A stretch of 54,502 bases of DNA from Prorocentrum cordatum (GCA_963575745.1 CAUYUJ010000233.1:62001-116502), one strand, 5' to 3'. Shown: positions 28,790-54,502, counted from the stretch's first letter. The notes: generated from the sequence alone by a model not told the origin. Translations and numbers: made by a program.

Positions 28790-29650
28790 TCAGCGAGTAG
28801 CGATGCTGATGATGATGATGATCGTTCGATGCCGATGATGGTGAGTGATCGCGGGATGGTGATGGTGATGCTGATGGTGACGATGATGATGAGTGGGGAG
28901 TGATGGTGATGGTGATGATGATGCGGAGGAGGAAACAAAGAGGAGCAGAGGAGAGGGAGGAGGAGGAGGAGGAGAGATCCTGCGCGGAGGGTGTGCAGAG
29001 AAAACAAGAACCCCACTTAGGATGTGGGGAATAAGACGCCAAACTCCAAACACCCTGACGACTTGAGCTAGCCAGAAAGGCTGAGCTGTCGTGAGCCGTG
29101 GTGCAACGCAACTGGGGAAAGCTGAAGGTGAGCCTGGAATGCTGTACCTGCTGCGGAAAGCTGAACCACCCCGAAACGAAGCCAACACCTGGCAGACCAC
29201 CCCACAGCGCAAGGGGGGAACCGAGCGACTGTGAGCCACGCAGTGCGCGCCAGCAAGGCGCAAGGCCTCTGAGCGGGGGGGGAAGCCAGCTGGCGTGGTC
29301 AGCATCGCCAGCGGGGTAGAATAGAGGGAGCTGCACTGATGGCAGCGTTGCCCTAAAGCCGAAACTAGACCAGAGCAGGCGAATCCCCAAGAGAACAGAA
29401 CTGGGAGCCGGCGGTAAACCGTCAACCTCGGTTTTTTGCGGTCTCTGCGGTCGACCGCGCGGGCCGTCTGGCCCAGTCGCAAGCAAGAAACGGGCATCAT
29501 ACAGGGTGAGCCAAACCGCCCACCACAGCGAGTGCGGAAGCTTGGGAGCGAAGCCTTTATAAGAACAAGTGACACTCAAGCGAAGCTCTTATTGAACACA
29601 CGTGCATGCATGAGAACGTACAAGTAAGAAGAAAGCAACGCAATCACAAA

Positions 29651-30260
29651 TCACAATAGGTCAAACTCGAAGTATGTGGATACAACCCGTGGAAGAACAT
29701 CAATGATATGTTCAATCGCCGACATCTCGGCATCGGTAACTGTAGCATTGTTGTCAATATAGAGAAAGCAGCACTGTAGACCTCCGCCCACACACTATCT
29801 CTGGATCTCGGCTTACGACATGTCCGTAAGACACGACCAACATCAATCCAGCAACAGACTCCGACACCAGCCGTCGACACGCCGCCATCGATGCCACAAC
29901 CGATGGCACAATACCTGTATATACTCGAAATCTCATTGAGTTCCTGCCCTATACCATCCTGAAATATGTCGTCGCCCTCACGGGCAGTATGAGTGAGCAC
30001 GTCCGCCCTTGTATCCCATTCCCTGAAGCAGTGTTCGCTCAAATCCCGTCCAGGAGCAAAGGGCCGTATATGGAACATAAAAGACATACCATCCAGGCGG
30101 TTAATAATCCTGTCAACTCTCCTCTGGAAATCCTTATTGATCACTTGCCAGTATCCCTGGCACCATGATACAACCAGGAGGCTATCACCATGAATACTTA
30201 TGGGGACTCCGAAGGCTTCAAGATCCCAATCGGCATTTTCCCATTTGGATGCGTGTACAG
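29651..30260 (-). pseudogene. RNase H-like domain with permuted motif order
   Basis: IHGDSLLVV (30181-30189), HCFREWDTRAD (30001), CGIDGG (29881-29892), then after a frameshift NATVTDAEMSAI (29726-29734); stop at 29651. Confidence 0.7.
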
Positions 30261-30910
30261 CTAGACGTTTAGCGAGACGATCCTTGGCGAGTTGCGAGCC
30301 CTCTGTCACTTCATACTCCCGAAGTTCCTGTCGGGTTTGGATGTGGACCTCACCTGTAACCCGAGGATGACTGAGACCTCTCAACACGAATCTGGAAGAA
30401 ATCGAGCAAATCCCGCGAGCAGGCATGCGCAGCGAACTGCTCAAAGGCCCCAGGCGTAGCACGAAAATCTTTCCATCACTTGGGCCCGAAGAACTCCGAG
30501 AACGTGTGGGTCCAATGCCTTTGTCCGATGGCCAGGCCCCCTCCTCTTTGGCGTTTCATCTGGCTGGATTCCCGAGAGAAGAAATTCATGCGCCGTACGA
30601 AAACGATCCCACATCACACCGTATGCACACAGACAAGCACGCACATCGCGCCACGGCCGATCTGCACTCCTCCACCCCTCGCATATATCCGCATCGAGGA
30701 CATGGATAAACTCGCAGGTATCTGTGGCCAGGTTCCAGGAAACACGAAGAAACCTCTGCACCATGGATGCAAGCCCCTCCTAGCCTCCGCATATGTCCCC
30801 CGACTCCATGTGGAAACATCCTCGCCAGGCGCCCTGGGACATGTGAACATTTTACATAAACAGAACCCCATCGAGGGAGTGCATACGCTGGAGAGGATGA
30901 TTGTCGAGCG

Positions 30911-31546
30911 TCATACCCTCAATCCCGTGCATGGCAATCCCTTGGACCTTCTCCTGATACCTCCAGAATTTGTCACGAATACTTCAGCCGGACAGCGGAA
31001 ATAATTTGCCATACCGAAGAAGCTCTTACGTGCCATGGACAAACGGTAATCAACATCAGGATGGGTAGAAGTATTGAACTCAGAATGGATCTCGACGCCG
31101 AGCACACTCAGCGAGGAAACTATGCGGAAACGTAAGACCGCTGGCGCGACGACAATGAGGTCTTCCGCGGGCACGAACACACCGTCTGCATCACAGCGTG
31201 GTGCTATCCCACAGGACATGAACCGCAATGATGACGCCTTCCACGCCATACCGAATGAGAAAAGTGGCAATGTTAGATCATGAATCATGGCCCTGAGATC
31301 TCGAACAGAGCCGGCTACAAGATAGACGTTGTCCGCCCAGAGGAAGTGACTGATGAGGAGCCCCTTACGTGCGGACCCGAAAAGGCCTTCGACTCGGTAG
31401 CCCATTCCCTTCACATCCCACGATCTGTAGACCTCGGTCCACATCGCCACGGTAATCAAGTTGAACACCAGAGGCCCCTCAGGGCCCCCCGTACGTAGAC
31501 ACCTATCCCAATGGAGCCCAAGAATTTCCATCCCCTCGACGATCAC
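30911..31546 (-). pseudogene. reverse transcriptase, domains 4-7 and thumb
   Basis: LRTGGPEGPLVFN (QGxxxSPxLF equivalent), SHFLWADNVYLV (YADD equivalent, 31328-31339), LSVLG, RLSMARKSF. Confidence 0.85.
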
Positions 31547-31676
31547 TGCATATATTGTCCCACATAACGGAAGCAGGAGAGCAGATTGAAGATATGGGGG
31601 GGTACATGTGCGTGTTGTAACCCTTTCCTCACATTGGCTTAACTACAATGATCGAACGCCTGTTTCATATCAGCAC

Positions 31677-31890
31677 TCACGATGTACACACTCCCACTCT
31701 TACCCTACGCATCCCCATGTTGAGCCAGTGTTTTGGAACTGATAGTAATTTCCCGTGCCTCCTGGAACCCAAAGATACCCAAGTTATGGGATATTCCAGA
31801 ACGCTGAACAAAGAATTCTCGACACGACGACAGAACACAAGCTTTCGCGTGAGGACGTCAATTTCTTGGAGCAGTGAGGGTTTCCAGAGG
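31677..31890 (-). pseudogene. APE-type endonuclease N-terminal fragment
   Basis: LLQEID at 31857-31874, upstream of RT on the same strand; only one motif seen. Confidence 0.4.
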
Positions 31891-32987
31891 ATTTCAAGTA
31901 TTCGAACACCGTCACGTTTGCAGCTATGTCTCAGCAGGAACCAGCAGGTGAGCCCCGTTCCAAAAAGAGCAAGGCTGAGGGCGAGGATGAGGACATGATT
32001 CAGGCAAGCAGTGAGGAATATGAGCAGTTTGGGGATTATGATGACGGCAATCCTCAGAAACAACCATTTGCCATGATGAAAGCGATGTTAGCAAGACAGA
32101 ACACACAGAAGAAACGCATGACACGGATAGAGCATGATGTCAACGTATCGATCAACGTCGAAATGAGGCAGATATTGCAGCTATGCAGCAGCAGATCCGT
32201 TTGCTTCAGCACGGTCGATCCCGCCGCAGTGCTTCTTGGCAGTAAAATCTACCCGACCGACCTGAGATTAAGACGGCGAGCGGGAATATGATCGAATATC
32301 ACAAGCAAAAATACTAGAGTTCTAACGAATGGTTGAATTTCGAGATACAATTTTAAGCCGACCAAAAGTCATAAAAAAGTCCCTCGAGATTTTTCTTGCG
32401 AACTAGCTCTCCGGCGCCCCGGAATTACTCAAGCTTCCAGCATCTAGCTAAGGGAAGCTCTACGAGTTACTAGCTTCACCCAGAAGGCCCACCCAGCGAG
32501 GCGGGATGAGGTTCCACGGATGCTTGGAGTAACTATGCGGGCCCAGTGGCGTCCACTGCCACGGCCACAGCTCCTAGGTATGGAAATCGTACGCCAGTCC
32601 GTGAATGGAATCGAGTGCGGGAGGACTGGGAACCGGCGGTAGACCGTCAACCAGACCGCCGGGGCCCTCGTAAAGCCTTTCCTCGCACGGCGCTCCTCGG
32701 TACACATGAAGGAGAGTTTGGAGCAAGACCCAAAAAACTCGAAAAATCCGTTTTATGTTTTTATCCAAAGACGTTCCCCCAAGTGTTTTGATAGTAATAC
32801 TGCAGCTACGGACCTGAAACATTATTGGCGGACGCGAAATAACCCACTACAGGTGCGAGAAATACCAGTTCTCAAAACGAATATTCAAATCTCTCAGAAA
32901 GTTCACAACCGACCAAAGTTCACACATTGTCCATCCGGGCCGGGTGGCTCAACTAGCTGCACACCGCGCCGGAATTCCTCTAGCTAA

Positions 32988-33527: not shown

Positions 33528-35161
33528 TCGATGTCGAAGAGCTATACGAGGTACTCCACACCGACCTTCATCCAGCTAACAAGCTGGAGGTGGAGCCGGT
33601 AACCTCAAGACCCGCTCAACAGACATGCTCTCTTGGGAACTGGGCGCCGGCGGTAAGCCGTCAACCATTCTTACCGCCAGAATCGTAGAGCTTCCTGACA
33701 ACATATAATATCGGAAAAAATTGCAGAGAACAAATAGTTTTTTGGCCCAAGCGATTTCAGAGCTCTGCAACAGCGGAACTCCCCCGATGCTTCTGCATTG
33801 TCTCTGTACGAGCTTTGTAGCTCTCCTACAATACAGCCCGAGTTACGCGCGTATATCGAGAGCACCTCTCAAGATGACTCGAACATACGAATAGTTTGGC
33901 GAACCTAGCTCAAGTGTCAGGCCGACCTCTCGATGCGACAGGCGGACGCGTCTGATGTCTTCGAATCGATTCCTGTGATTACCAGCCCTGAATCCCCCCT
34001 ACAGCCCGAGTTAAGGTAGAAAACCAACAGCACCTCTCAGGATGACTCGAAAACTACGGATAGTTTCGCGCACCTAGTTCGGGCGGCAGACTCAGTTCCG
34101 AGCTCTGGATTCGACAGGTGGACGCGCCTGATGTCTCCAAATCGATTCCTATGATTGCCAGCCCTGGAGCCCCGAGTCAAGTACCGAAAACCGACAGCAC
34201 CTCTCAAGATGACTCGAACAATACGAATAGTTTCGTTTCTAGATCGCAGAGCAGACCGATTTCACAGCTCGAGAATCAAGAGACAACCACAACTGAGGAT
34301 TCTGAACCAGTTTCTGTAAGTATCAGCTCTGTAACTGTCATATGCCTCGAATTGAGTACAGACAACAGAGAGCGCCTATCAAGATGACTCGAATAATACG
34401 AATAGGTTTGCGGACCTTGCTCGGCTAGCAGACCGAAATCAGACTTCAGGATGCAACAGACAAACGCGCCTCATCATTCTGAATCGGTAAGATGTACTCA
34501 CCAGCTCTGTAGCTGTTCTGTATCTCGAGTTAAGTCCAATATACCGACATTCAACAGACATGATATCTTTGGAACTTGCTCTGCCTGTTATTCGTAAGTT
34601 TGTTCGTGGCACGGGGAGGATGACTGACGAGCATGTTGACATCAGTACGATCGAGCGGGGGCAGAAACTGGCGCCGGCGGTGAACCGTCAACCGTGTGAG
34701 AGAGCTGAGAGTCGAAAGAGAGAGCTTCTGGAGGCATTTCTCGAAAAAATGAACATTGTTTTTGTTTTATGTCGAAACGAAGTTGGTTCCTCCAAGTGTG
34801 TCGGTAGTAAAAGTGCCCCTAGAGAGCTTATATTAAGACGCTGAGGCTCTCATAACCTTCCACAGGTGCGAAAAATCTGCTTTCTGCAAATAAATTGTCA
34901 AACATCTTTCAAATATTGATAAATCACCGAAAAGTTATGACTTTGTCATTTCTGGTCGGGTCAACGAACTAGCTCCACCCCGCGCCGGATTCCTCTAGCT
35001 CATCGATGACGAAGAGCTCTACGAGGTAAACAAACCCTATCACTGTATCGAATCCGATTCTATGTTCAGAATGGCAAGTTAACCAATGATGACATATGGG
35101 AAATCCGCAATTCCTCGGCCATGGAGATCGAAAATTATATGCATGCTTAAAATACAGCAGA

Positions 35162-35562
35162 CTGGGAATCGGCGGTAAACCGTCAACCAGGTTACCCCAG
35201 GGGCGCTCGTAGAGCTCTTTTTCTCACACGGCGCTCATCGGTAAGCATGAAGAAAGCGTCTGGAGCAAGACCTGAGAAACTCAAAAAATCACGTTTTTCT
35301 GTTTTTATCTAACGTTGGTTCCTCCAAGTGTTTTGATAGTAATACTACAGCTACGGACCTAAAAGTTTTACTGGCAGACGGGTCTTAACCCACTACAGGT
35401 GCGAAAAATCTGCTTTCTCAAAATGAATTGTCAAATATCTTTCAAATATTCGCAAAAACACCAGAAGTTATCACTTTCTCCTTTCTCAACGGGTCGACCA
35501 ACTAGCTCCATCCCGCGCCGGAATTCCTCTAGCTCATCGATGCTGAAGAGCTCTACGAGGTA
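35162..35562 (-). mobile_element. complete B-type element (401 bp)
   Basis: CTGGGAATCGGCGGTAAACC...CTCGTAGAGCTCTT / AAGAGCTCTACGAGGTA with unique flanks. Confidence 0.8.
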
Positions 35563-38500
35563 TCACCCCCCAACTTTGGAAAATCATGTGAACCAGCGCC
35601 TTGGAAGCAGCCGCATGGTTCCTCTGTGGGTCGTTACCAAGCTATTTTTGCTACTCAGAGGAGTCGCCCTCAGTGGCTGAAAGGTGAGATGGGCCCCTCC
35701 ATCATCTACATGTGGAGCTATCCCTCGGCAGTGACGTCGAAGACTGAGGGAGTGTGTATTGCCGCTTTCGATCAACTTGGTAGCATCAAAAAACCGAAGA
35801 GCAACTGGGCGCCGGCGGTAAACCGTCAACCTTGGTTACCGCCGGAAGACTCGTAGAGCTTCCTAGCTCGACTTAAGTTGAGAAAACCGACAGCACCCAC
35901 CAACATTCCGACTCATAGTGAATATTCTTTGACCTCTGAATGCGACAGGCGGACGCGTCTGATGTCTGCGAATCGACTCCTGTCATTACCAAGGCCCTCA
36001 GCCCCCTACAGCCAGAGTTAAGTGCAGAAAACGGACAGCACCTCTCAGGATGACTCGAACAATACAGTTGTTTCGCAGACCTAATTCGGGTAGCAGACCG
36101 AGTTCCGAGCTCTGGATTCGACAGGCGGACGCGCCTGATGTCTTCAAATCGATTCCTGTGACAACAAGCACTGTAGCCCCCCTCAGCGCGAGTTCAGTGA
36201 AGAAAACCGAGAGCACTTCTCAAGATGACTCGACAAATACGAATAGTTCGCGATTCTAGATCGGGCAGCAAACCGAGTTCAGGCCCTGGATCACAGACAA
36301 AACCAACTGATGATTCTGAATTGTTTTCAGTAAATACCCTCTGTAGCTGTCCTACAGCTCGATTTAAGTACAGAAAACCGAGAGTACCTGTCAAGATGAC
36401 TCGAATAATACGAATAGGTTTGCGGACCTAGCTCGGCTAACAGACCGAGTTCAGACCTCTGGATTCAACAGGCGAACGCGCCTAATCATTCTACATCGAT
36501 TAGCTGTGCTTACCAGCTCTGTAGCTGTCCTAAAGCTCGAGTTATGTTCAGAAAACCGTCAGCGCGTATCAAGATGACTCAAAACGGCCGATCCCGCAAC
36601 AGTGCTTTTCGATAGTAATATTCACCCGATCGAGCTTGAGATCAAGATGGCAGCGGGAATTAAGCCTAGTATCCTGGAAAAATACAGAGCACTAACGAAT
36701 GGTTGATTTTCGAGAACGAATTTTCAACCGACCAAAAAAAAAAAAAAAAAAAGTCAGCAGACTATCCGTCGAGATTTTTCGAGCCAACTAGCTCTCCAGC
36801 GCGCCGGAATTACTGGGCGCCGGCGGTAAACCGTCAACCTTGGTTACCGCCGGGAGACTCGTAGAGCTTCCTAGCTCAACTTAAGTTGAGAAAACCGACA
36901 GCACCTACCAACATTCCGACTCATAGTGAATATTTTTTGACCTCTGAATGCGACAGGCGGACGCGTCTGATGTCTGCGAATCGACTCCTGTCATTACCAG
37001 CCCTGCAGCTCCCCTACAGCCCGAGTTAAGTGCAGAAAACCGACAGCACCTCTCAGGATGACTCGAACAATACAGTCGTTTCGCAGACCTAATTCGGGCA
37101 GCAGACCGAGTTCCGAGCTCTGGATTCGACAGGCGGACGCGCCTGATGTCTTCAAATCGATTCCTGTGACCACCAGCACTGTAGCCCCCCTCAGCGCGAG
37201 TTGAGTGAAGAAAACCGAGAGCACTTCTCAAGATGACTCGACCAATACGAATAGTTTCGCGATTCTAGATCGGGCAGCAGACCGAGTTCAGAGTTCTGAC
37301 GCAACTGATGATTGAATCGGTTTCTGAAAAAATATCAGCAATGTAGCTGTCCTACAGCTCGAGTTAAGTACAGAAAACCGAGAGTTCCTGTCAAGATGAC
37401 TCGAATAATACGAATAGGTTTGCGGACCTAGCTCGGCTAACAGACCGAGTTCAGACCTCTGGATTCAACGGGCGAACGCGCCTAATCATTCTACATCGAT
37501 TAGCTTTGCTTACCAGCTCTGTAGCTGTCCTTAAGCTCGAGTTATGTTCAGAAAACCGTCAGCGCGTATCAAGATGACTCGAAACGGCCGATCCCGCCAC
37601 AGTGCTTATTCGATGTAATATTCACCCGATCGAGCTGAGATCAAGATGGCGAGCGGGAATAAGATCGAATATCACGGGAAAAAATACTAGAGCTCAAACG
37701 ACTTGTTGAATTTTGAGAAGAAAATTTTCAACCGACCAAAAATCACCAAAAGTTCCGTCGAGATTTTTCTTGCCAACTAGCTCTCCAGCGCGCCGGAATT
37801 ACTGGGCGCCGGCGGTAAACCGTCAACCTTCGTTACCGCCGGGGGACTCGTAGAGCTTCCTGACAACATATAATGTCGAAAAACATTACACAGAAAAAAT
37901 ATGTTTTCAGCCCAAGCTATTTTAGACCTCTGGGATGCAACAGCCGAACGCTCCCGATGCTTCTGGATTGTCTTCTGTACAAGCTCTGTAGCTCTCCTAC
38001 AGCCCTAGATACGTGCGTAAATCGACAGCAGCTCTCAAGATGACTCGAACAATACGAATAGTTTGGCAAACCTAGCTCGAGTATCAGACCGAGTTCAGAT
38101 ACATGCGACAGGCGGACACGTCTGATGTCTCTGAATCGATTTCTGTGATTACCAGCCCTGCAGCCCCCCCTAGAGCCCGAGTTAAGTGCAGGAAACCGAC
38201 AGCACCTCTCAGGATGACTCGAACAATACGAATGGTTTCGCGAACCTAGTTCGGGCAGCAGACAAAGTTCGGTGCTCTGGATTCGAAAGGCGGACGCGCC
38301 TGTTGTCTCCGAATCGATTCCAGTGATTACCAGCATGCAGACCCCTACAGCCCGAGTTAAGTGCAGAGAACCGACAGAATCTCTAAAGATGACTCGAACA
38401 ATACAGTTTCGCGATTCTAGATCGGGCAGCAGACCGAGTTCAGAGCTCTGGATTCAACAGACAACGGCCACTGATGATTCTGAATCCGATTCTGTACGTA

Positions 38501-39363
38501 ACAGCTCTGTAGCTGCCCTGTAGCTCGAGTTAAGTACAGAAAACCGAGAGCGTCTGTCAAGACTACTCGAATAATACGAATAGGTTTGCGGATCTAGCTC
38601 GGCTAGCAGACCGAGGTCAGACCTCTGGATTCAACAGGCGAACGCGCCTCATCATGCTGAATCGATTAGCTGTGCTTATCAGGTCTGTAGTTGTCCTAAA
38701 GCTCGAGTTATCTGAAGAAAACCGTCATCGCATGACAAGATGACCCGAAACGGGCGATCCCGCCTGAACGCTTTTTGGGAGTAAAAGCTACCCGATCGAG
38801 CTGAGATCAAGATGGCGAGCGGGAATAAGATCGAATATTATGGGAAATACTAAGAGCCTAAACGCAAATTGGTTGATGTCGAGACAAAATTTTCAAAAAT
38901 CCCGACCAAATTCCTCAAAATGTTCGTCGTATTTTTCGTGTCAACTAGCTCTCTCAACAAATAAACTCAACACTCCAAAGAAGCCAACCAAATACGCCAA
39001 CAGCGCCCCGAAACTGGCGCCGGCGGTGAAAACCGTCAACCTGGTCACCGCCGGGAACCTCGTAGAGCTCCTTTCAGCGTAAGAGTGCTCCAGGGTCGCA
39101 AGAAGAGAAAAAACAAAAAAAAACAAAAAAAAAAAAAAAGGCTTCTCTTTCCTGGAAGCATTTCTCGAAAAGGGGAAAAATGATTTTTTCGTGTCGACAT
39201 GAAGATGGTTGCTCCAAGTGTTTTGATAGTGAAAGAGCGCCTACGGAGCTCATACTAAGACAGAGAGGCCCTCATAGTCGTTTACAGGTGCGAAAAATCT
39301 GCTTTCTCAAAATGAATTGTCAAATATCTTTGAAAAAATTGCAAAACCACCCAAAAGTTATCA

Positions 39364-39764
39364 CTGGCCGCCGGCGGTGAACCGTCACCTGGTCGCCGCC
39401 GGGAACCCTTCGTAGAGCTCATTTCACGCGTAAGAGTGCTCGGAGTCGAAAGAGAGAGCTTCTGGAAGCATTTCTCGAAAAAGAGAAAAATTGTTCTTTT
39501 TCGTGTCGACATGAAGATGGTTCCGCCAAGTGTTTTGATAGTGAAAGTGCGCCTACAGAGCTCATACTAAGACAGAGAGGCCCTCATAGTCGTTTACAGG
39601 TTCGAAAAATCTGCTTCCTCAAAATGAATTGTCAAATATCTTTCAAAAAATTGCAAAACCACCCAAAAGTTACCACTCTGTCCTTTCTGGCCGGGTCGAC
39701 CAACTAGCTCCACCCTGCGCCAGAATTCCTCTAGCTCATCGATGCCGAAGAGCTCTACGAGGTA
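39364..39764 (-). mobile_element. complete C-type element (401 bp), joined head-to-tail to a deleted A copy (39765-40003)
   Basis: junction CTACGAGGTA|CTGGGCGCC; the dimer's flanks rejoin as GTTATCA|CTTTGTCC. Confidence 0.8.
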
Positions 39765-41558
39765 CTGGGCGCCGGCGGCAAACCGTCAACATTGGAGATC
39801 AAGATGGCGAGAGGGAATAAGATCGAATATCACGGGAAAAAATACTAGAGCTCTAACGAATTGTTGAATTTCGATAACAAAATTTTCAACCGACGAAAAG
39901 TCAGCAAAAGTTCCGTCGAGATTTTTCGAGCCAACTTGCCTGCCAGTGCGTCCGAATTACTCTTAAGCTTCCAGCTGCTAGCTTTGGGAAGCTCTACGAG
40001 TCACTTTGTCCTTCCTGGCCGGGTCGACCAACTGGGCGCCGGCGGTAAACCGTCAACCTTCCTTACCGCCGGAGGACTCGTAGAGCTTAGAGAGAACGAA
40101 TAGTTTTCCAGCCCAAGCGATTTCAGACCTCTCGATGCAACAGCCGAACGCCCCATCTAATACAACGAATAATTTGGCAATCCAGCTCGAGTATCAAACC
40201 GAGTTCAGACCTCTGAGTGCGACAGGCGGACGCGTCTGATGTCTGCGAATCGACTCCTGTAATTGCCAGCCCTGCAGCCCCCCTACACCCCGAGTTCAGT
40301 GCAGAAAAGCGACAGGATGAGAACAATACAATGGTTTCGCAGACCTAGTTCGGGCAGCAGGCCGAATTCCGAGCTCTGGATTCGACAGGCGGACGCGCCT
40401 GATGTCTCCGAATCGATTCCAGTGATGACCAGCCATGCTGCCCCCCTACAGCCCGAGTCAAGTGCAGAGAACAGACAGCACTTCTCAATATGACTCGAAC
40501 AATACGAATAGTTTCGCGATTCTAGATCTGGCATCAGACCGAGTTCAGAGCTCTCGATTCAACAGACAGATGCGACTGGTGATTCTGAATCGGTTTCTGT
40601 AAGTATTAGCTCTGTAGCTGTCCTATAGCTCGAGACAAGTACAGAAAACCGAGAGCGTCTGTCAAGATAACTCCAAAAATACGAAAAGGTTTGCGGACCT
40701 AGCTCGGCTAGCAGACCGATTCTAGACCTCTAGATTCTACAGACGAACGCGCCTGATCGTTCGGAATCGACTAGCAGTGCTTACCAGCTCTGTAGCTGTC
40801 CTAAGGCTCGAGTTAAGAAAACCGAGAGCGTCTGTCAAGATGACTCGAATAATACGAATGGGTTTGCGGACCTAGCTCGGCTAGCAGACCGAGTTCAGGC
40901 TTCTAGATTCAACAGGCGAACGCGCCTGATCATTCTGAATCGATTAGCTGTGCTTACCAGCTCTGTAGCTGTGCTAGAGCTCGAGTTATCTTCAGAAAAT
41001 AGTCATCGCGTTCCAAGATGACTTAAAACGGCCGATCTCGCCTGCCTGCTTTTTGGCAGTAAAAGATACCCTATCGAGCTGAGATCAAGATTGCGAGCGG
41101 GAGCAAGATCAAATATCAAGGGAAAAAATACTAGAGCTCAAACGAATTGTTGAATTTCGAGAACAACATTTTCAACCGACCAAAAGTCTAGCGCCCCGGA
41201 AGTGGCGCCGGCGGTGAACCGTCAACCTGGTCACCGCCGGGAACCTCGTAGAGCTCATTTCACGCGTAAGAGTGCTCGGAGTCGAAAGAGAGAGCTTCTG
41301 GAAGCATTTCTCGAAAAAAAGAAAAAATGATTTTTTCGTGTCGACATGAAGATGGTTCCGCCAAGTGTTTTGATAGTAAAAGTGCGCCTACAAAACAAAA
41401 AACTAAAAAACCGAAAAAAAAACAAAAACAAAGAAAACAAAACACAAACAAACAAAAAAAAAAAAAAAAAAACAAAGAAACATAACAAATACCAAAAAAA
41501 AAACAAAAAAAAAACGACAAAACAAAACAACCCAAAAAAGCCAAAAAACAAAGGACAC

Positions 41559-41589
<31 letters not shown>

Positions 41590-44500: not shown

Positions 44501-45433
44501 GAGCAATTTCAGACCGATCGATGAACACCGCTGATGCGTCTGGATCGTTTCCTGCGCGTACGAGCTCTGTAGCTCTCCTACAGCCCGAGTAACGTGCGAA
44601 AAGTGACAGCACCTCTCAAGATAACTCCAATAATATGCATAGCTTCGCGAACCTAGCTCGAGTATCAGACCGAGTTCAGACCTCTGAATGCGACCGGCGG
44701 ACACGCCTGATGTCTCTGAATCGATTCATGTGATTACCAGCCCCGTAACCCCCCTACAGACCGAGAAAATCGACTCTCAAGATGACCCGAACAATACGAA
44801 TAGTCAGGCTAGCTCGGGAAGCAGAGGAATTTAGAGCTCTGGAATCAACGAAGAAACGCAACTAATGTCTGCAAATCGATTCCTGTGACCATCAGCCCTG
44901 TAGCCCCCCTACAGCCCGAGCTAGTACGGAAAACTAACAGCACCTCTCAAGATGACTCGAAGAATACGAATAGCTTCGCGAACTTAGCTCGGGCAGCAGA
45001 CCGAGTTTAGAGCTCTGGATTCAACAAACGAACGCGTCTGATGTCTTCGAATCGATTCCTGTAATTACAAGCCCTGTAGCCCCCCGACAGCCCGAGTTAC
45101 GTGCAGAAAACTGGCAGCATCTCTCAAGATGACTCGAACGATACGAATGGTTTTGCGAACCTAGCTCGGGCAGCAGACCGTGTTTAGAGCTCTCGATTTA
45201 ACAGACACGTTCCTGTAAGTATCAGCTCTGTAGCTGCCCTACAGCTCGAGTTAAGTATAAAATACTGAGAGCGTGTATCAAGATTATTCAAAACGGCCGA
45301 TCCCGCCGCAACGCTTTTTGGCAGTAATATTCACCCGATCGATCTGAGATTAAGATGGCGAGCGGGAATAAGATCGAATATGGTCAGAAAAAATACTAGA
45401 GCTCAAACGAATTGTTGAATTCCGAGAACAAAA

Positions 45434-46645
45434 CTGGGCGCCGGCGGTAAACCGTCAACCTTTCTTACCGCCGGGGGACTCGTAGAGCTTCCTGACAATG
45501 TATAATGTCGAAAAAAATTGCAGAGAACGAGTAGTTTCCCAGCCCAAGCGATTTCAGACCTCTCGATGCAACAGCCGAACGCCCCCGATGCTTCTGGATT
45601 GTCTTCTGTACGAGCTCTGTAGCTCTCCTACAGCCCGAGTTACGTGCGTGAATCGACAGCAACCCTGAAGATCACTCGAACAATACGAATAGTTTGGCAA
45701 ACCTAGCTCGAGTATCAGACCAAGTTCAGGCCTCTCAATGCGACAGGCGGACACGTCTGATGTCTCCAAATCGATTCCTGTGATAACCAGCCCTGCAGCC
45801 CCCCTACAGCCCGAGTTAAGTGTAGAAAACCGACAGCATCCCAGGATGACTTGAACAATACGAATAGTTTCGCGGACCTAGTTCGGGCAGCAGACCGAGG
45901 TCCGAGCTCTGGATTCGACAGGCGGACGCGCCTGGTGTCTCCAAATCGATATGTGACTACCAGCACTGTAGCCACTCCCCAGAACTCGAGTTAAGTACAG
46001 AAACCACCTCTCAAGATGACTCGAACAATACGAATAGGTTCGCGATTCTAGAGCGGGCAGCAGACCGAGTTCAGAGCTCTCGATTCAACAGACAAACGCG
46101 ACTGATGACTCTGAATCGGTTTCTGTAAGTATCAGCTCTGTAGCTGTCATATAGCTCGAGTTAAGTTCAGAAAACCGAAAGCGCCTGTCAAGATGACTCG
46201 AATAATACGAATAGGTTTGCGGACCTAGCTCGGCTAGCAGACCGAGTTCAGACCTCTGGATGCGACAGACGAACGCGCCTGATCATTCTGCATCGATAAG
46301 GTGTGCTTGCCAGCTCTGTAGCTGTCCTGTATCTCGAATTAAGTCCAATATACCGACAGCGCGTATCAAGCTGACTCGAAACGGCCGATCCCGCCTGAAC
46401 GCTTTTTGGCAGTAACAGGTACCCAATCGAGCTGAGATCAAGATGGCGAGCGGGAATAATATCTAATATCACGGGAAAGAATACTAGAGCTCTAACGAAT
46501 GGTTGAATTTCGAAAACAAAATTTTCAACCGACCAAAAGTCACCAAAAGGTCCGTCTAGATTTTTCTTGTCAACTAGCTCTCCAGCGCCCCGGAATTACC
46601 CTTAAGCTTCCAGCAATAACTTGCTAAGGGAAGCTCTACGAGTTA
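45434..46645 (-). mobile_element. complete A-type element (1212 bp) with ~175-bp internal tandem repeats
   Basis: ATIR ACTCGTAGAGCTTCC / GGAAGCTCTACGAGT; flanks rejoin as GAGAACAAAA|TTTTCAACCGAC. Confidence 0.85.
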
Positions 46646-46802
46646 TTTTCAACCGACACCAAGTCAGCAAAAGGTAGGTCGAGATTTTTCTTGCCAACTA
46701 GCTCTCCAGCGCCCTGGTATTTCTCTTAAGCTTCCAGCAACTGGGCGCCGGCGGTAAACCGTCAACCTTTCTTACCGCCGGGGGGCTCGTAGAGCTTCCT
46801 GA

Positions 46803-46860
<58 letters not shown>

Positions 46861-48015
46861 TTTTCAGCCTATACGATTTCGGACCTCTCGATGCAACAGC
46901 CAAACGCCCCTCATGCTTCTGGATCGTTTTCTGTGCGCACGAGCTCCGTAGCTCTCCTACAGCCCGAGCTGCGTGCGAAAATCGACAGCATCTCACAAGA
47001 TCACTCGAACAATACAAATAGTTTCGCGAATCTAGCTCGAGTACCAGACCGAGTTCAGACCTCTGAGTGCAACAGGCGGACGCGCCTGATGTCTCCGAAT
47101 CGATTCCTGTGATTACAAGCCCTGCATCTCCCTTACACCCCGAGTTAAGTGCAGAAAACCGACAGCACCTCTGAAGATGACTCGAACAATACGAAAAGCT
47201 TCGCGGACCTAGCTCGGGCAGCAGACCGAGTTCAGAGCTCTGAATGCGACAGGCGGACGCGACTGATGTCTCCGAATCGATTCCAGTGATTACCAGCCCT
47301 GCAGCCCCTTACAGCTCGAGTTAAGTGGAGAAAACGGACAGCACCTCTCAAGATGACTCGAAGAATACGAATAGTTTTGCGGATCTAGCTCGGGCAGCAC
47401 ACCGAGTTCTGAGCTCTGGATTTGGCAGGCGGACGCGTCTGATGTCTCCGAATCGATTTCTGTGAGTACGAGCCCTGTAGCTCTCCTAGAGCCCGAGTTA
47501 AGTGCAGAAAACTGACAGCATCTCTCAAGATGACTCGAAACATACGAATAGATTCGCGAACCTAGCTCGGGCAGCAGACCGAGTTCAGACCTCTGGATGG
47601 AACAGACGAACGCGCCTGATGATTTGCAATCATTTTCTGTGCGAATGAGCTCTGTAGCTGCCCTACAGCTCGAGTTAAGTACAAAATACCGACAACGCGT
47701 ATCAAGATAACTCGAAACAGCCAATCCCGCCGCGATGCTTTTTTGCAGAAATATTTACCCGATGGAGCTGAGATTAAGAAGGCGAGCGGGAATAAGATCG
47801 AATATGGTCAGCAAAAATACTAGAGCTCAAACGAATTTTTGAATTTCGAGAACAAAATTTTCAACCGACCAAAAGTCAGCAAAAAGTCCGTCGAGATTTT
47901 TCTTGCCAACTAGCTCTCCAGCGCCCCGGAATTACCGAAAGAATGAGCTCTGTAGGCTGCCCTACGCTCCGCGTTAAGTACAACATCCGTCAACGCGGTA
48001 GCAAAATTACTCGAA

Positions 48016-49225
48016 CTGTGCGCCGGCGTACAAACACCGTCAACCCGTCGAGGACCGCCGTGGACTCGTCGAGGTCCTGAAATTATAATTTAAAAAATGT
48101 AAAGCGAATAGTTTTTCAGCCTCAAGTGTTTCAGACCTCTCGATGCAACAGCCGCAACGCCACCGATGTTCAGAATTGTCCCGATTGCGAACTGCTGTCT
48201 TCCGCCTCCTACAGCCGTCAGTTATGTGCGTAAATCGACCGTACCTCTCAAGAAAACTAACAAAACCATAGTTTGCACCCAGCTCGAGTATCAAACCGAG
48301 TTCAGACCTCTGAATGCGACAGGCGGACGCGTCTGATGTCTGCGAATCGACTCCTGTGATTACCAGCCCTGCAGCCCCCTTACAACCCGAGTTAAGTGCA
48401 GAAAACCGACAGCACCTCTCAGGATGACTCGAGCAATACAATAGTTTCGCGGACCTAGTTCGGGCAGCAGACCGAGTCCCGGCCTCTGGATTCGAAAGGC
48501 GGACGCGCCTGATGTCTTCAAATCGATTCCTGTGACCACCAGCACTGTAGCCCCCCCCAGCCCGAGTTCAGTGCAGAAAACCGAGAGCACTTCTCAAGAT
48601 CACCGAACAATACTAATAGTTCCGCAATTCTAGATCGGGCAGCAGACCGAGTTCAGAGCTCTGGATTTAACAGACAAATGCGAGTGACGATTCTGAATCG
48701 GTGTCTGTAAGCATCAGCTCTGTAGCTGTCCTATAAGTCGAGTTAAGTACAGAAAATCGAGAGCGTCTGTCAAGATGACTCGAATAATACGAATAGGTTT
48801 GCGGACATAGCTCAGCTAGCAGACCGAGTTCAGACCTCTAGATTCAACAGGCGAACGCGCCTGATCATCCTGGATGGATTAGCTGTGCTTACCAGCTCTG
48901 TAGCTGTCCTAAAGATCGAGTTATGTTAGAAAACCGTCATCGCGTGTCAAGATGACTCGAAACGGCCGATCCCGCCTGCCTGCTTTTTGGCAGTAAAAGG
49001 TGCCCGATCGAGCTGAGATCAAGATGGCGAGCGGGAATAAGATCAAATACCATCGTAAAATTACTAGAGCTCTAACGAATGGTTGAATTTCGAGAACAAA
49101 ATTTTCAACCGACCAAAAATCACCAAAAGTTCCGTCGAGATTTGTCTTGCCAACTAGCTCTCCAGCGCCCCGGAATTACTCTTAAGCTTCCAGCAATAAC
49201 TTGCTAAGGGAAGCTCTACGAGTTA
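48016..49225 (-). mobile_element. complete A-type element nested in another A copy
   Basis: flanks rejoin as CTCGAA|CAGCCGATCCCG; the left part is error-rich. Confidence 0.7.
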
Positions 49226-49976
49226 CAGCCGATCCCGCCGCGATGCTTCTTTGCAGAAGTAGTTACCCGATCGAGCTGAGATTAAGACGGCGAGCGGAAA
49301 TAAGATCGAATATGGTCAGAAAAAATACTAGAGCTCTAACGAATGATTGAATTTCGAGAACAAAATTTTCAACCGACCAAAAGTCAGCAAAAGGTCCGTC
49401 GAGATTTTTCTGCCAACTAGCTCTCCAGCGCCCCGGAATTCTTAGGCTTCCAGCAATAACTTGCTAAGGGGAGCTCTACGAGTTACTGGGCGCCGGCGGT
49501 GAACCGTCAACCTTTGTTTTTTGCGGACTTTGCGGTCGACTGTGCAGGCTTTCCAGCCTAGTCGGAAGCAAGGAAGCGGACGTATAGGGAGCAGGCGAAG
49601 CCTCACCGATCCTGACGATCAGGAAGACGACAGCCTAAGCTCTTATGAGTGTGTGAAGTGAAGCACGCACGCACGACACGCACAAGCATGGCATGAGCGA
49701 GCAGCGGACACCTAATCACATCAACTCAAATCCGAAATACGCTTGTACAACCCGCGGTATGACAAGAGTCTTATGCTCAACGTCAAATGTGAAGTGATGA
49801 ATTAATGAGATCAAATACTATCGAACATCTTTGAGGCAACAGTACGTCTCCATCAACAGGCACGTCGGAACGATCAAGAAAATGAATGAAACCTGTCTCT
49901 GAATCCGTCTCACTGAACAAGCACGTGACACAATACAAGCAAGCAACAAAGAGAGGCGGCGGCAGGCAGCATATAC

Positions 49977-51392
49977 TTAGGTGTAATGTATAGTATTAGC
50001 AGGCCTCGTAAACACAGGCCTCGTAGACGCAGCACTCGCCACAGAACCTGATCGCGCCAGTCCCTGAAGTCTCTGGACGAAGGCCTCGAGTTGATTTTGT
50101 CTAGCCTCCAAGCTTCTGTACCTTTTGTCCAAGCTGGAAATTGCAACACCCTGCTTCTGTACCTGGGTCTGAACATTATCGATTTTAATACCCTGAACAA
50201 CTATGGCGTCCTGGATCCTCTCAGTATTGCCATCCATCTTATGCATCGTCTGAAGTAGTAAGCACTTCATGTCATCCTGCCTTCGCTGTTCTACACCGAA
50301 AGTTGCATACCAGTGGTCACGAATAGCTTCATCCCACTCCTCTTCTGTCGCAAAACCGAAAGCTGCATACTCTTGTCCTCGTATGTTGGCGCCTTTAGAG
50401 CTCTTGGCCGGCTTGGCGCTGCTATGATATCGTTGGCCTTTGCCTCTGCCTTTGCGGTGACCTCGTACAGGATTCGATGCCTCATTGAGCGTGACGGGAC
50501 GATTCAGACACTCCTGGGACGCTCCTGACAAGGCGCGGCTATCATAATCAGACTGCACGTTCGGAGAAGACTCCTCACTCGAGGGTGCCTCCAGCTCCTC
50601 CTCCGCCGCCACAGTCACTTTCCCAAGAAGAACTCCTGAAGCTTCTCCCTCCATCCCAACGACACTCTCTGTCTGACAGCCGACTTCACAATGAAAGTCC
50701 GCAACATCCGTACTAGAAGAAGCCTGCACTCCAATATCTACCGAAGAGACCCGTGGGCAAACCACCATCATCTGAGAGAACTGATCGCCTCCGAATCCCT
50801 GACCAACCTCCTCCCGCATCAAACTGCAAGAAAGATTTTCCGAGGGTGTCGTAACGGCAGTTTGCTCCACCTCCAAATGATTATACCGAGTCTGCAATCC
50901 AACATCAAACACGGAATCCGCAGCCAGCACTCCAGCATTTGCCGAAGGGGCACATGGATATTTGGCTTGAAGCATACGGCAAGAAAGATTCTCCGAAACA
51001 GTCGTAATGTCAGCCTCCTCCTCCTCCTCCACCAAACTGCATTTAACAACAAGTGGATCGCGCAACAAGAGATAATCTAGAACCAAATCGGCAGTCGTCC
51101 GTTCCAGCCCTGGTGGTGGGAGACACGTAGGTGGCACCAAACCTTCCAGAGGCAAACGAACAGGTGAATGCACACAGTATCCGTTTTGAACAGCCAGCGC
51201 CCGACGCATAATGCGAGCACTTGCACTCCGCACGCGTGGCATAGCGAAAGATTGCAGAGACTGCCTCGGAAGCACCCAGCAATACAAATCAATCGAAGAC
51301 CACTCAAGGCGATCAAACGTGTCAAATGAAAGGCGGTGCAATATCACTCTAGGCGACAAACGTGTGACCCCCTGACTCGCACTCGATCCCAC
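49977..51392 (-). CDS. ORF1-like protein (471 aa): low-complexity N-half, C-terminal coiled coil
   Basis: long non-repetitive ORF; heptad-like MKCLLLQTM...VQKQGVAISSLDKRYRSLEARQNQLE; true start codon uncertain. Confidence 0.6.
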   Translation of the reverse strand: MGSSASQGVTRLSPRVILHRLSFDTFDRLEWSSIDLYCWVLPRQSLQSFAMPRVRSASARIMRRALAVQNGYCVHSPVRLPLEGLVPPTCLPPPGLERTTADLVLDYLLLRDPLVVKCSLVEEEEEADITTVSENLSCRMLQAKYPCAPSANAGVLAADSVFDVGLQTRYNHLEVEQTAVTTPSENLSCSLMREEVGQGFGGDQFSQMMVVCPRVSSVDIGVQASSSTDVADFHCEVGCQTESVVGMEGEASGVLLGKVTVAAEEELEAPSSEESSPNVQSDYDSRALSGASQECLNRPVTLNEASNPVRGHRKGRGKGQRYHSSAKPAKSSKGANIRGQEYAAFGFATEEEWDEAIRDHWYATFGVEQRRQDDMKCLLLQTMHKMDGNTERIQDAIVVQGIKIDNVQTQVQKQGVAISSLDKRYRSLEARQNQLEAFVQRLQGLARSGSVASAASTRPVFTRPANTIHYT

Positions 51393-51431
51393 TGGAGGTT
51401 ACCCAGGCAGAGGGGATCAAATGTCAAGCGC

Positions 51432-51455
51432 CTTGAGCCGAGATTTTCTTGAGCC
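51432..51455 (-). other. two tandem dinoflagellate spliced-leader relics
   Basis: minus strand GGCTCAAG-AAAATCTC-GGCTCAAG at the exact 5' junction; dinoSL is DCCGTAGCCATTTTGGCTCAAG. Confidence 0.6.
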
Positions 51456-54400
51456 GGGGGACTCGTAGAGCTTCCTGACAACATATAATGTCGAAAAAAG
51501 TTATACAGAAAAAAAGTTTTTCAGCCCAAGCAATTTCAGACCTCTCGGATGGAACAGCCGAACGCCCCCGATGCTTCTGGTGTGTCTGTACGAGCTCTGT
51601 AGCTCTCCTACAGCCCGAGTTACGTGCGTAAATCGACAGCACCTCTCAAGATGACTCGAACAATTCAAATAGTTTGGCAAACCTACCTCGAGTATCAGAC
51701 CGAGTTCAGACCTCTGCATGCGACAGGCGGACGCGTCTGATGTCTCTGAATCGAATCCTGTGATTACCAGCCCTGCAGCCCCCCTACAGCCCCCCTACAA
51801 TATATAATTTGGGAAAAAATGCAGAGAACGAATAGTTTTTCAGCCCAAGCGATGTGAGACCTCTCGATGCAACAGTCGAACGCCCCCGATGCTTCTGGAT
51901 TGTTTTCTTTGCGAGCTCTGTAGCTCTCCTACAGCCCGAGTTAAGTGCAGGAAACCGACAGCACCTCTCAGGATGACTTGAACAATACACATAGTTTCGC
52001 GAACCTAGTTTGAGCAGCAGACAGAGTTCGGAGTTTTGGATTCGAAAGGCGGACGCGCCTGATGTCTCCGAATCGATTCCAATGATTACCAGCCATGCAG
52101 CCCCCCTACAGCCCAAGGTAAGCGCAGAGAACCGATAGCATCTCTCAAGATGACTCGAACAATACGAATAGTTTGGCGATTCTACATCGGGCAGCAGACC
52201 GAGTTCAGAGCTCGGGATTCAACAGAGAACGGCCACTCATGACTCTGGATCAGATTATGTACGCATCAGCTCTGTAGCTGTCCTGTAGCTCGAGTGAAGT
52301 ACAGAAAACCGAGAGTGTCTGTCAAGATGACTCGAATAATACAAATTGATATGCGGATCTAGCTCGGCTAGCAGACCGAATTCAGACCTCTCGGTTCAAC
52401 GGCCCAACGCCCCTGATCATTCTGAATCGATTAGCTGTGCTTACCAGCTCTGTAGCTGTCCTGAAGCTCGAGTTATCTTGAGAAAACCGTCACTGCGTGA
52501 CAAGATAACTCGAAAGGGCCGATGCCGCCAGTGTGCTTCTTAGCAGTAAAAGATACCCGATCGATCTGAGATCGAGACGGCGAGCGGGAATGAGATCGAA
52601 TATCACGGGAAAAAATACTAGAGCTGAAACGAATTGAAAAATCTCGAGAACAAAATTTTGAACCGACCAAAAGTCACCAAAAGGTCCGTCGACATTTTTC
52701 TTGCCAACTAGCTCTCCAGCGCCCCGGAACTGGCGCCGGCGGTGAACCGTCAACTTGGTCACCGCGGGAACCTCGTGGGGCTCGTTGCACGCGTAAGAGT
52801 GCTGAGATGTAAAGCAGACAGCTTCTGAAAGCATTTCTACAAAACACCGAATTGTTTTTTTCGGTATCCACATGATGTCAGTTCCTGAAAATGTTTGGAT
52901 AGTAAAACTCCCTCGAGAGAGCTGAGCTGCTCGCAGAAGGAAGTTTAGATACTGATGTTCGGAGTAAGAACCTGCTTTTTCAAATTTTCGCTAAACCGAC
53001 CCAAAGTTATCACATCTTCTTTTCTGGTCGGGTCGACCACTGGCGCCGGCAGTAAACCGTCAACCTGGTCACCGCCGGGAGCCTCGTAGAGCTCATTTCA
53101 CGCGTAAGAGTGCTCGAAGTCGAAGAGAGAGCTTCTGGAAGCATTTCTCGAAAAAAATGATTTTTTCGTGTCGACATGAAGATGGTTCCGCCAAGTGTTT
53201 TGATAGTAAAAGTGCGCCTACAGAGCTCATACTAAGACAGAGAAGCCCTCATAGTCGTTTACAGGTGCGAAAAATCTGCTTTCTCAAAATGAATTGTCAA
53301 ATATCTTTCAAAAAATTGCAAAACCACCCAAAAGTTACCACTTTGTCCTTTCTGGCCGGGTCGACCAACTGGGCGCCGGCGGTAAACCGTCAACCTTCGT
53401 TACCGCCGGGGGACTCGTAGAGCTTCCTGACATCATATAATGTCGAAAAAATACACTGAAAAAAAAATTCTTCAGCCCAAGAAATTTCAGACCTCTCCGA
53501 TGTAACAGCCGAACGCCCCCGATGCTTCTGGATTGTCTTCTGTACGAGCTCTGTAGCTCTCCTACAGCCCGAGTTACGTGCGTAAATCGACAGCACCTCT
53601 CAAGATGACTCGAACAATACGAATAGTTTGGCAAACCTAGCTCGAGTATCAGACCGAGTTCAGGCCTCTGAATGCGACAGGCGAACGCGTCTGATCTCTC
53701 CGAATCGATACCTGTTGATTACCAGCCCTACTGACAGCCCTTCTACACCCGAGTTTAAAGTGCAGGAAACCGACAGCACCTCTCGGATGACTCGACAATA
53801 CGAAAAATAGTTACGCGACCTAGTTCGGGCATGCAAACAGAGTTCATAGTCTTCGTTCGAAGGCGGGCGCACCTGATGTCCCCGAATCGATTCCAGTGAT
53901 TACCAGCCATGCAGCCCCCCTACAGCCCGAGTTGAGTGCAGAGAACCGACAGCATCTCTCAAGATGACTCGAACAATACGAATAGTTCTGCGATTCTAGA
54001 TCGGGCAGCAGACCGAGTTCAGAGCTCTGGATTCAACAGACAACGGCCACTGATGATTCTGAATCAGATTCTGTACGCATCAGCTCTTTAGCTGTCCTGT
54101 AGCTCGAGTTAAGTACAGAAAACCGAGAGCGCCTGTCAAGATGACTCGAATAATACGAATAGGTTTGCGGACCTAGCTCGGCTAGCAGACCGAATTCAGA
54201 CCTCTGGGTTCAACAGGCGAACGCGCCTGATCATTCTGAATCGATTAGCTGTGCTTACCAGCTCTGTAGCTGTCCTAAAGCTCGAGTTATCTTGAGAAAA
54301 CCGTCACCGCGTGACAAGATGACCCGAAACGGCCGATCCCGCCTGCCTGCTTTTTGGCAGTAAAAGGTACCCGATCGAGCTGAGATCAAGATGGCGAGCG

Positions 54401-54502
54401 GGAATAAGATCGAATATCACGGGAAAAATACTAAAGCTCTAACGAATGTTCAAATTTCGAGAACAAAGTTTTCTACCGACCAAAAGTCACCAAAAGGTCC
54501 GT

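Follow-up and report, generated by a model that had tools for sequence, protein, structure and literature searches.

A LINE tail lies twice at the same nucleotide of a Helitron2-like terminal hairpin in Prorocentrum cordatum: a candidate target-directed retrotransposon in a dinoflagellate

A stretch of 54,502 nt from the genome of the dinoflagellate Prorocentrum cordatum (GCA_963575745.1, CAUYUJ010000233.1:62001-116502), analysed in full and referred to here as the window, carries the 3' tail of a long interspersed nuclear element (LINE) in two places. In each of them the tail is joined to the terminal hairpin of a repeat that resembles the rolling-circle transposons of the Helitron2 type. The question raised by this locus is whether the LINE chooses the hairpin, or whether the coincidence has arisen through breakage of the hairpin or through copying of a single insertion. 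An initial annotation of the sequence had proposed a site-specific non-long-terminal-repeat element using the hairpin as its target. The current analysis makes it probable that a LINE family of the apurinic endonuclease (APE) type integrates preferentially, and probably specifically, at the 3' edge of the loop of the Helitron2-like hairpin, and that the LINE tail also carries other RNAs to this place.

Two inserts in one loop

The hairpin consists of a 10-bp stem and a 14-nt loop with CCGTCAACC. About 29 copies are present in the window (about 26 plus-strand copies, spread from 25.6 to 53.4 kb, and 3 minus-strand copies), as counted by a one-mismatch search for CCGTCAACC with chance matches set aside. 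On the plus strand the motif closing every unit of the host repeat is ACTGGGCGCCGGCGGTAA-ACCGTCAACCTTTC-TTACCGCCGG-GGGA-CTCGTAGAGCT. The hairpin is real and conserved. In an alignment of 20 intact copies 92.5% of the stem cells are paired, and two of the ten stem pairs show compensatory double changes (A-T to G-C and T-A to C-G); pairing falls to 23-65% when the partner is slid by 1-3 columns as a control, and the covariation score is matched by 7 of 500 shuffles. The hairpin pattern has 0 matches in viral contigs.

Parts of the window are contained in three metagenome runs from three studies (X1, X2 and X3), the pieces of which were compared at 80% likeness. A fourth run, X4, yielded no matching piece, and thinly covered parts of X1 were given no weight. 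In X1 the summed depth is 62,689 for the hairpin bin and about 84,000-92,000 for the 5' module of the host repeat, against 24-131 for the bins of the LINE body. The hairpin bin is thus about 500-2600 times higher than the LINE body by this measure, which is not copy number. The hairpin repeat clearly exceeds the LINE in abundance by far, and is therefore not a by-product of it.

The features of the two inserts, A and B, and of their flanks are as follows.

29400..29433, minus strand: outer arm and loop of the host hairpin to the left of insert A (last 34 nt, at the 3' end, of the Helitron2-like element; matches 20 intact hairpins)
29434..29662, minus strand: 3' untranslated region (UTR) of the LINE in insert A (minus-strand end ..GTCGACCGCAGAGACCGC and an A run; stop of the remnant of the second open reading frame, ORF2, at about 29660)
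29663..31842, minus strand: decayed ORF2 remnant of insert A (reverse transcriptase, starting near residue 554 of a relative of 1279 aa, followed by an RNase-H-like C-terminal part)
31843..32205, minus strand: probable further LINE sequence of insert A up to its 5' truncation, poorly defined (weak likeness by eye to the N-terminal part of reverse transcriptase)
32211..32471, minus strand: host 5' module to the right of insert A, with the 5' inverted repeat at its start (identity of 73-86% with 13 further unit ends, e.g. 49230-49487)
43195..43290, minus strand: empty paralogous site, as an example (an intact hairpin between the 5' inverted repeat of one unit and the 3' inverted repeat of the unit that follows)
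49485..49518, minus strand: outer arm and loop of the host hairpin, left flank of insert B (aligned with intact hairpins)
49519..49795, minus strand: LINE-derived tail of insert B (3' UTR, last ~25 ORF2 codons and stop)
49977..51398, minus strand: 473-codon stop-free frame of insert B (start codon ATG at 51242 and stop codon at 49977-49979; belongs to a multicopy family and is neither reverse transcriptase nor RNase H)
51432..51455, minus strand: 5' end of insert B (GGCTCAAG twice, the first copy across the junction with host GGC)
51453..51475, minus strand: remnant of the inner hairpin arm and 3' inverted repeat of the host (GCCGGGGGA-CTCGTAGAGCTTCC), right flank of insert B

On the plus strand the junction of insert A reads ..ACTGGGAGCCGGCGGTAAACCGTCAACCTCGG-TTTTTTGCGGTCTCTGCGGTCGAC (29400-29455) and that of insert B ..ACTGGGCGCCGGCGGTGAACCGTCAACCTTTG-TTTTTTGCGGACTTTGCGGTCGAC (49485-49540). 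In comparison with the 20 intact hairpins, both agree with the host as far as ..CCGTCAACCT[CT][GT]GTT, after which TTTTGCGG.. stands in place of the host's ACCGCC. This alignment places the junctions at 29433/29434 and 49518/49519, with an ambiguity within the T run. The site and the common orientation given by the initial annotation (3' ends at about 29428 and 49514) have been retained, and the junctions moved 4-5 nt further in. Both inserts split the loop at its 3' edge between GTT and ACC, in the same orientation relative to the hairpin. The target position on the plus strand lies between ..CCGTCAACCTTNGTT and ACCGCCGG.. in the 3'-terminal hairpin of a non-autonomous repeat.

Beyond insert B the host resumes at 51453 with GCCGGGGGACTCGTAGAGCTTCC, exactly where the annotation had placed it, and passes into the start of the next unit; the region 51453-51600 is 87-90% identical to the unit starts at 53405, 37838 and 45470. 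The two flanks of insert B rebuild one hairpin like that of the empty site at 43195-43290, and there is no target-site duplication, as had been stated. The loss of about 7 nt that was claimed with it is better given as 3-8 nt: 3 nt (ACC) if TT and GCC are counted as host, and up to 8 nt otherwise. The expectation that such an insertion disrupts the host hairpin is borne out in both cases, each hairpin being split. The terminal hairpin is thought to be needed by a rolling-circle element for termination.

Both of the two tails present in the window occupy the same hairpin nucleotide. For two insertions placed at random in 54.5 kb, the probability that each meets the corresponding nucleotide and strand of any of the approximately 29 hairpins is about 7e-8. 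Chance is thereby excluded, and common descent or a site that attracts insertions remain as explanations.

Insert A extends from 29434 to about 32205 on the minus strand. Residues 554-1279 of a 1279-aa relative (P0155) have been aligned by tblastn to 31818..29663 on the minus strand in four pieces and two frames with a joint E-value of about 1e-119. The remnant contains at least 3 frame changes and 5 in-frame stops. Its stop-free reverse transcriptase piece (30911-31642, minus strand) has 295 relatives at E<=1e-3 in a phmmer search of 1.84 billion representatives, the best at 47% identity; RVT_1 is recognised in all nine relatives tested, in 7 of them above the Pfam cut-off. A word-index protein search with the same piece gave no match among longer proteins. 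Full-length relatives of the LINE comprise 1263-1455 aa. The family profile matches human L1 ORF2p (E=7e-24), which is the best solved relative, R2 (about 1e-18) and the second half of RNase H (6e-4). The APE catalytic columns (QE, D.N, NT, D, DH) are invariant in all six long relatives; insert A itself is truncated before this part. The match of the profile to exonuclease III is weak (E=0.31), and Pfam finds no endonuclease domain in the tested relatives. Pfam scans of insert A, insert B and the 67 open reading frames (ORFs) scanned in the window returned nothing but two sub-threshold chance matches.

Insert A has a 5' truncation, a 3' A run of 4-6 and no target-site duplication. Several target-specific LINEs are likewise without such duplications. 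As judged from its relatives, the profile matches and the catalytic columns, insert A represents an APE-type LINE that is dead and truncated at its 5' end; its 3' UTR measures about 230 nt and closes with a short A run. The non-LTR element of the initial annotation is thus present. On the left of the insert the likeness to other hairpins begins sharply at 29399-29400. On its 5' side, at about 32205-32211, it adjoins a 260-nt host 5' module; host likeness begins there only at 32205-32216, and the missing right half of the hairpin is absent. The flanks would represent one host element in proper order and orientation minus its interior, which fits an insertion that came with or before a deletion of about 1 kb.

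The C-terminal RNase-H-like domain of the LINE family (29663-30360, minus strand) seems to be circularly permuted. By eye, the motifs of the second half (GDS.., RE.N..AD.LTH) precede those of the first (FDGG..G.G, T.TD.EL.A.E), and this order is kept in insert A and in all long relatives (P0155, P0007, P0162 and P0167). In profile searches the match to solved RNase H chains is confined to residues 65-137 (E from 6e-4). A 101-aa reverse transcriptase fragment (P0005), 74% identical to insert A, is filed under a Pyramimonas transcriptome, and the relatives of insert B under Prorocentrum; contamination of the transcriptome or a LINE family shared by the two is possible. A green-alga origin of the window, entertained on account of this fragment, was rejected in view of the Prorocentrum cordatum relatives of the frame in insert B (12 of 13, at up to 95% identity).

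Insert B occupies 49519-51452 on the minus strand. Its LINE part is restricted to the last ~280 nt, and a tblastn search of the insert found 0 reverse transcriptase or RNase H hits at E<0.01. The initial annotation had described two diverged copies of one LINE family; this holds for insert A, a LINE remnant, and has to be reduced to the tail for insert B. The homology it had reported in the 3' UTR and the ORF2 C-terminus is present but short. The tails share 60 nt at 80% identity (29431-29490 with 49516-49575) and a second collinear block of 67-78 nt at 67%, which covers the last ~25 ORF2 codons and the stop. Between these blocks about 140 nt are unalignable, and beyond them nothing is alike. 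The C-terminal frames end in ..PRVVQAYFGFELM in insert B and ..PRVVSTYFEFDLL in insert A, each followed by the stop.

The part of insert B outside the tail, about 1.66 kb, contains the 473-codon frame; in 2000 shuffles the longest frame has a mean of 121 and a maximum of 282 codons. Relatives of this frame form 13 clusters, 12 of which are listed as 'unnamed protein product [Prorocentrum cordatum]', the best at 95% identity. When eight relatives and insert B are aligned, the 5' UTR (in translation) and the first ~270 residues are nearly identical, and the C-terminal or 3' parts are unrelated between subfamilies. No known family has been found for the frame, an atlas search giving low recognition (1203) and a best score of 0.81. 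In view of the low score the frame may not encode a folded protein.

At the 5' end of insert B, on the minus strand, host ..CCCCCGGC is joined to TCAAGAAAATCTCGGCTCAAGG. The GGCTCAAG found there corresponds to the last 8 nt of the 22-nt dinoflagellate spliced leader (DinoSL), given as DCCGUAGCCAUUUUGGCUCAAG (PMC6050394). Insert B is best read as a retrotransposed, spliced-leader-tagged chimeric transcript that ends in the LINE tail. The best reading of inserts A and B is that each arose by its own retrotransposition into the shared loop nucleotide, because their bodies differ, A is dead and B open, and B has a spliced-leader-like 5' end.

Further junctions were sought among the metagenome pieces. 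X1 and X2 include pieces about 99.6% identical to the 5' part of insert A, so the same species is present in both; X1 is possibly the source sample and not independent. A contig of 275 nt in X2 (record 9) matches 29396-29655 at about 84% and bridges the junction with 33-38 nt on the hairpin side, followed by 25 nt that do not fit the outer flank of insert A. By this alignment it is a third, A-like junction of tail and hairpin. Among the 24 pieces listed, one from X3 (record 19) also crosses the junction with 21-26 nt on the hairpin side only, below the counting rule. All other contigs among the matches listed carry T at 29445 and 29456, like insert B, and none of these matches has a loose end just inside the tail. 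A degenerate tail pattern found 84 loci in metagenome contigs, in contexts that look bacterial, and a T run with hairpin follows in none of the 84; a motif flagged in one of them (L076) was set aside as chance.

The events may be pictured as follows. The plus strand would be nicked after GTT, and the terminal T residues of the nicked strand would base-pair with the short run of A at the end of the LINE RNA. Reverse transcription would be primed at this point, that is, by target-primed reverse transcription. The second junction would then be formed 3-6 nt away in insert B and about 1 kb away, inside the same host element, in insert A, with the interior of the element deleted. The LINE tail would serve as a cis signal recognised by the LINE protein, and any RNA ending in this tail, such as that of insert B, could consequently be delivered in trans to the same site. 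Since the relatives keep the APE catalytic residues, the endonuclease of the LINE itself is favoured as the putative nicking enzyme. Under such a scheme most tail 3' ends would join ..AACNNAGGTTGACGG.. at the same nucleotide, in many unit contexts.

Other origins of the shared junction

Several observations weigh against a LINE that selects the hairpin. Exactly six T stand at the junction of both inserts, which fits a fixed end of the RNA and equally fits common descent. The cut-site motif (TT/A) is no more specific than that of L1. The events available are the two in the window and one counted bridging contig (among the 24 pieces listed), and this contig, coming from a metagenome at 80% likeness, could belong to another organism. 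The tail contigs of X1 stop near 29429-29440, which is expected for variable loops and for unrelated flanks alike and hence does not discriminate. Finally, the loop is also broken where no LINE is present. At 34693/34694 it is joined, after CCGTCAACC, to a diverged interior, and at 39795/39796 to a 5' module; CCGTCAACATTGG is the second sequence, besides CCGTCAACC, after which these LINE-free breakpoints lie. The hairpins at 41743 and 53057 are chimeric, with mismatched arm classes. From these cases the loop looks like a general break or recombination point, which may break independently of the LINE.

The breakpoints at 34693 and 39795, the mismatched arms and the shortness of the cut motif are what would be seen if the insertion is site-specific without any choice by the LINE. 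The loop would have been nicked or broken beforehand, by an HUH-type Rep of the host or through the fragility of a cruciform, and the reverse transcriptase would prime on the free 3' end. We regard this as unlikely, though it is the strongest of the competing accounts. The small deletion and the lack of a target-site duplication in insert B agree with it, as these are usual in endonuclease-independent L1 events, and the junction TT/AC at the 3' edge of the loop presumably resembles the nick sites of rolling-circle origins. The element boundary, however, is located at ..CCCAGT, 8 nt beyond the hairpin rather than within its loop, suggesting that the host's own cleavage occurs there. The LINE relatives, moreover, keep all APE catalytic columns, and no Rep gene is found among the 67 ORFs scanned in the window. 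There is a slim likelihood, of the same order, that a retrotransposon uses the nick of a rolling-circle Rep, or hairpin extrusion, at TT/AC, and that spliced-leader-capped transcripts are delivered by the same route. If true, this would be a retroelement living off the replication chemistry of a DNA transposon, and would offer a defined pathway for the formation of dinoflagellate retrogenes.

Somewhat more doubtful still is the descent of both inserts from one ancient full-length insertion, the composite of which was copied by array duplication or by host mobilisation. Inserts A and B would then have been deleted differently, and the frame of B would be ORF1. The same junction with six T is explained directly in this way. 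The host units are 15-25% diverged, similar to the 20% in the best 60 nt of the tails; and because the start of B could be a full-length 5' end and A lacks its 5' part, the two bodies need not overlap. Copies of equal age, however, should show equal decay, and the tails, only 67% alike near the stop, cannot be aligned over about 140 nt, yet the frame of B is intact and 95% identical to another genomic copy. The outer flanks of A and B share nothing past the 34-nt hairpin, and the third, A-like junction has yet another outer flank. The family of B shares its 5' part and differs in its 3' parts, unlike an ORF1. A word-index search found no protein fusing the B frame to a reverse transcriptase among longer proteins, which is weak evidence in the same direction.

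It is very improbable that the 29-34 nt of half hairpin are the LINE's own 3' end and that nothing is targeted, a possibility recognised with the original proposal: in both inserts the likeness to hairpins does break off abruptly where the half hairpin has its outer edge, with different sequence beyond, but the opposite flank of insert B consists of the half that is missing from the same hairpin, followed by the next unit, the window has about 27 intact LINE-free hairpins against 2 that bear a tail, the excess in depth being vast, and the loop nucleotides beside the T run differ between A and B as host loops do.

The Helitron2-like host repeat and its surroundings

33638..54502, minus strand: array of host units (about 0.4 kb and 1-1.5 kb), all closed by the hairpin; internal repeats of about 177 nt occur in the longer units

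The array starts at about 33.6 kb and runs to the end of the window, with solitary copies of the host repeat to its left. Its units are mutually 15-25% diverged. On the minus strand a unit has the layout 5'-(T)AC/AA-CTCGTAGAGCTC ... GAGCTCTACGAG, 4-6 nt, hairpin, CGCCCAGT-3'. The terminal inverted repeats are asymmetric and 12 bp long, CTCGTAGAGCTC pairing with GAGCTCTACGAG. Similarity between copies ends abruptly at ..CCCAGT on one side and 2-4 nt past the 12-bp repeat on the other, and 11 element ends on the plus strand consist of GAGCTCTACGAG and 2-4 nt followed by variable sequence. At the hairpin side the boundary (..CGCCCAGT) is 8 nt outside the hairpin, with variable flanks beyond. The 3' inverted repeat stands 4-6 nt upstream of the hairpin and, as the hairpin spans 34 nt, about 46-50 nt from the element end. 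In the minimum-energy folds of all six 5' ends considered, the 5' inverted repeat is partly paired with downstream bases; one of the six folds is clearly better than its shuffles (z -3.4), the others ranging from +0.6 to -1.4.

Helitron2 elements, as defined by Bao and Jurka (2013, PMC3627910), are bounded by asymmetric inverted repeats of 8-15 bp. The 5' repeat takes part in a 5' hairpin and is 0-2 bp away from the terminus; the 3' repeat directly precedes a 3' hairpin, and its distance from the terminus is about 20-30 bp. The host repeat resembles these elements in its 12-bp asymmetric repeats, in a 5' hairpin that includes the 5' repeat, and in a 3' hairpin with a short tail. It differs from them, as they are described in that source, in the distance of the 3' repeat from the end (about 46-50 nt and not 20-30) and in that no RepHel is found in the scanned ORFs of the window, 0 of 67 matching the Helitron or PIF1 family. 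The assignment of the host as Helitron2-like made in the initial annotation accordingly stands for the terminal structure and finds no counterpart in a Rep or helicase: by its termini, and not by protein, the repeat is Helitron2-like. The copies in the window are short and non-autonomous, the missing Rep and helicase being compatible with an autonomous partner elsewhere in the genome. A minicircle or CRESS-like concatemer was considered for the array and is disfavoured, as the units are bounded outside the hairpin rather than in its loop. Rfam and tRNA scans of the window gave nothing relevant, so the array is not an array of known small-RNA genes.

Some further features have been observed in and around the host repeat. 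A segment of about 152 nt (32472-32623) fills precisely the interval from the 5' end of a host module (..GAGTTACT) to the hairpin that comes next (ACTGGG..). In four contigs, three from X1 and one from X2, 153-157 nt are missing at this place, which implies other copies without the segment; its depth is raised, and it is possibly a small mobile insert at a unit boundary. A pure A run of about 55 nt (46802-46860) directly follows the 3' inverted repeat of a unit, where other units have ..CAATATATAATGTCGA.., and another A-rich stretch of about 250 nt is located at 41380-41640; both may be due to microsatellite growth or to further retro-insertions. Just left of the flank of insert A, five tandem copies of a 159-nt G+C-rich unit, 71-97% alike, occupy 27953-28888. 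A tRNA-like fold with a 4-base anticodon loop (gcgc) reported by ARAGORN at 21023-21100 on the plus strand, near a minus-strand copy of the hairpin, is probably spurious.

Relation to known target-specific elements

Target-specific LINEs are rare, and they serve as models of how harmless sites are found and as leads for site-directed integration. The nearest system is the LINE Tx1L of Xenopus, which integrates with stringent targeting at one sequence inside the DNA transposon Tx1D (PMC1950540). The statement in the initial annotation that the present pairing was undescribed has for this reason to be given up in its general form, since Tx1L in Tx1D makes it not unprecedented in kind. As in Tx1L, a LINE of the APE type is associated with a specific sequence in another multicopy transposon. 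Unlike that of Tx1L, the target is the loop edge of a Helitron2-like terminal hairpin, and it is located in a dinoflagellate. Tx1L makes a short target duplication, in place of which a small deletion is seen at insert B. The specificity of the endonuclease has been demonstrated for Tx1L, whereas the LINE of P. cordatum is known here from its sequence. A LINE targeting another transposon is thus known in kind, and the Helitron-like hairpin as a variant target is moderately well supported. In the literature on target-specific LINEs and Helitrons, as far as its texts were available, no description of a LINE aimed at a Helitron-type hairpin was found. None in dinoflagellates was found in the main texts of works including the P. 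cordatum genome paper, a review of dinoflagellate genomics and a survey of introners.

With R1 and R2, TRAS and SART, CRE, SLACS and NeSL the P. cordatum family shares an abundant and dispensable repeated target, following the logic of a safe harbour, and a precise junction. The targets of these elements are host RNA genes or telomeres and not a transposon. R2, CRE and NeSL use a restriction-like endonuclease, in contrast to the APE motifs of the P. cordatum family. The role proposed for the LINE tail has a parallel in R2, which uses its 3' UTR as a recognition element (PMC3414825). If the preferred reading is true, a new type of target is added, namely a structured DNA motif of another parasite that is disabled by each hit, and the case would be the first known from a dinoflagellate, to judge from the literature searched.

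Insert B is comparable to short interspersed nuclear elements, half-L1 elements and processed retrocopies in being a foreign RNA that ends in the last ~280 nt of a LINE and lies at the site of that LINE. The sharing of the tail fits mobilisation in trans through a common 3' end, as in the non-autonomous partners of LINEs. It differs from other tail-sharing partners in its length of 1.9 kb, its long open frame, its spliced-leader-like 5' end and its exchangeable 3' parts. The GGCTCAAG present twice at its 5' end places it beside the DinoSL-marked retrogenes of dinoflagellates (leader as in PMC6050394). The account of these retrogenes, in the passages available from that source, names no integration enzyme or site; the 3' end of insert B and the site at which it lies point to a particular LINE. 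Insert B would in this way link the abundant DinoSL-marked retrogenes of dinoflagellates to a specific reverse-transcription machinery.

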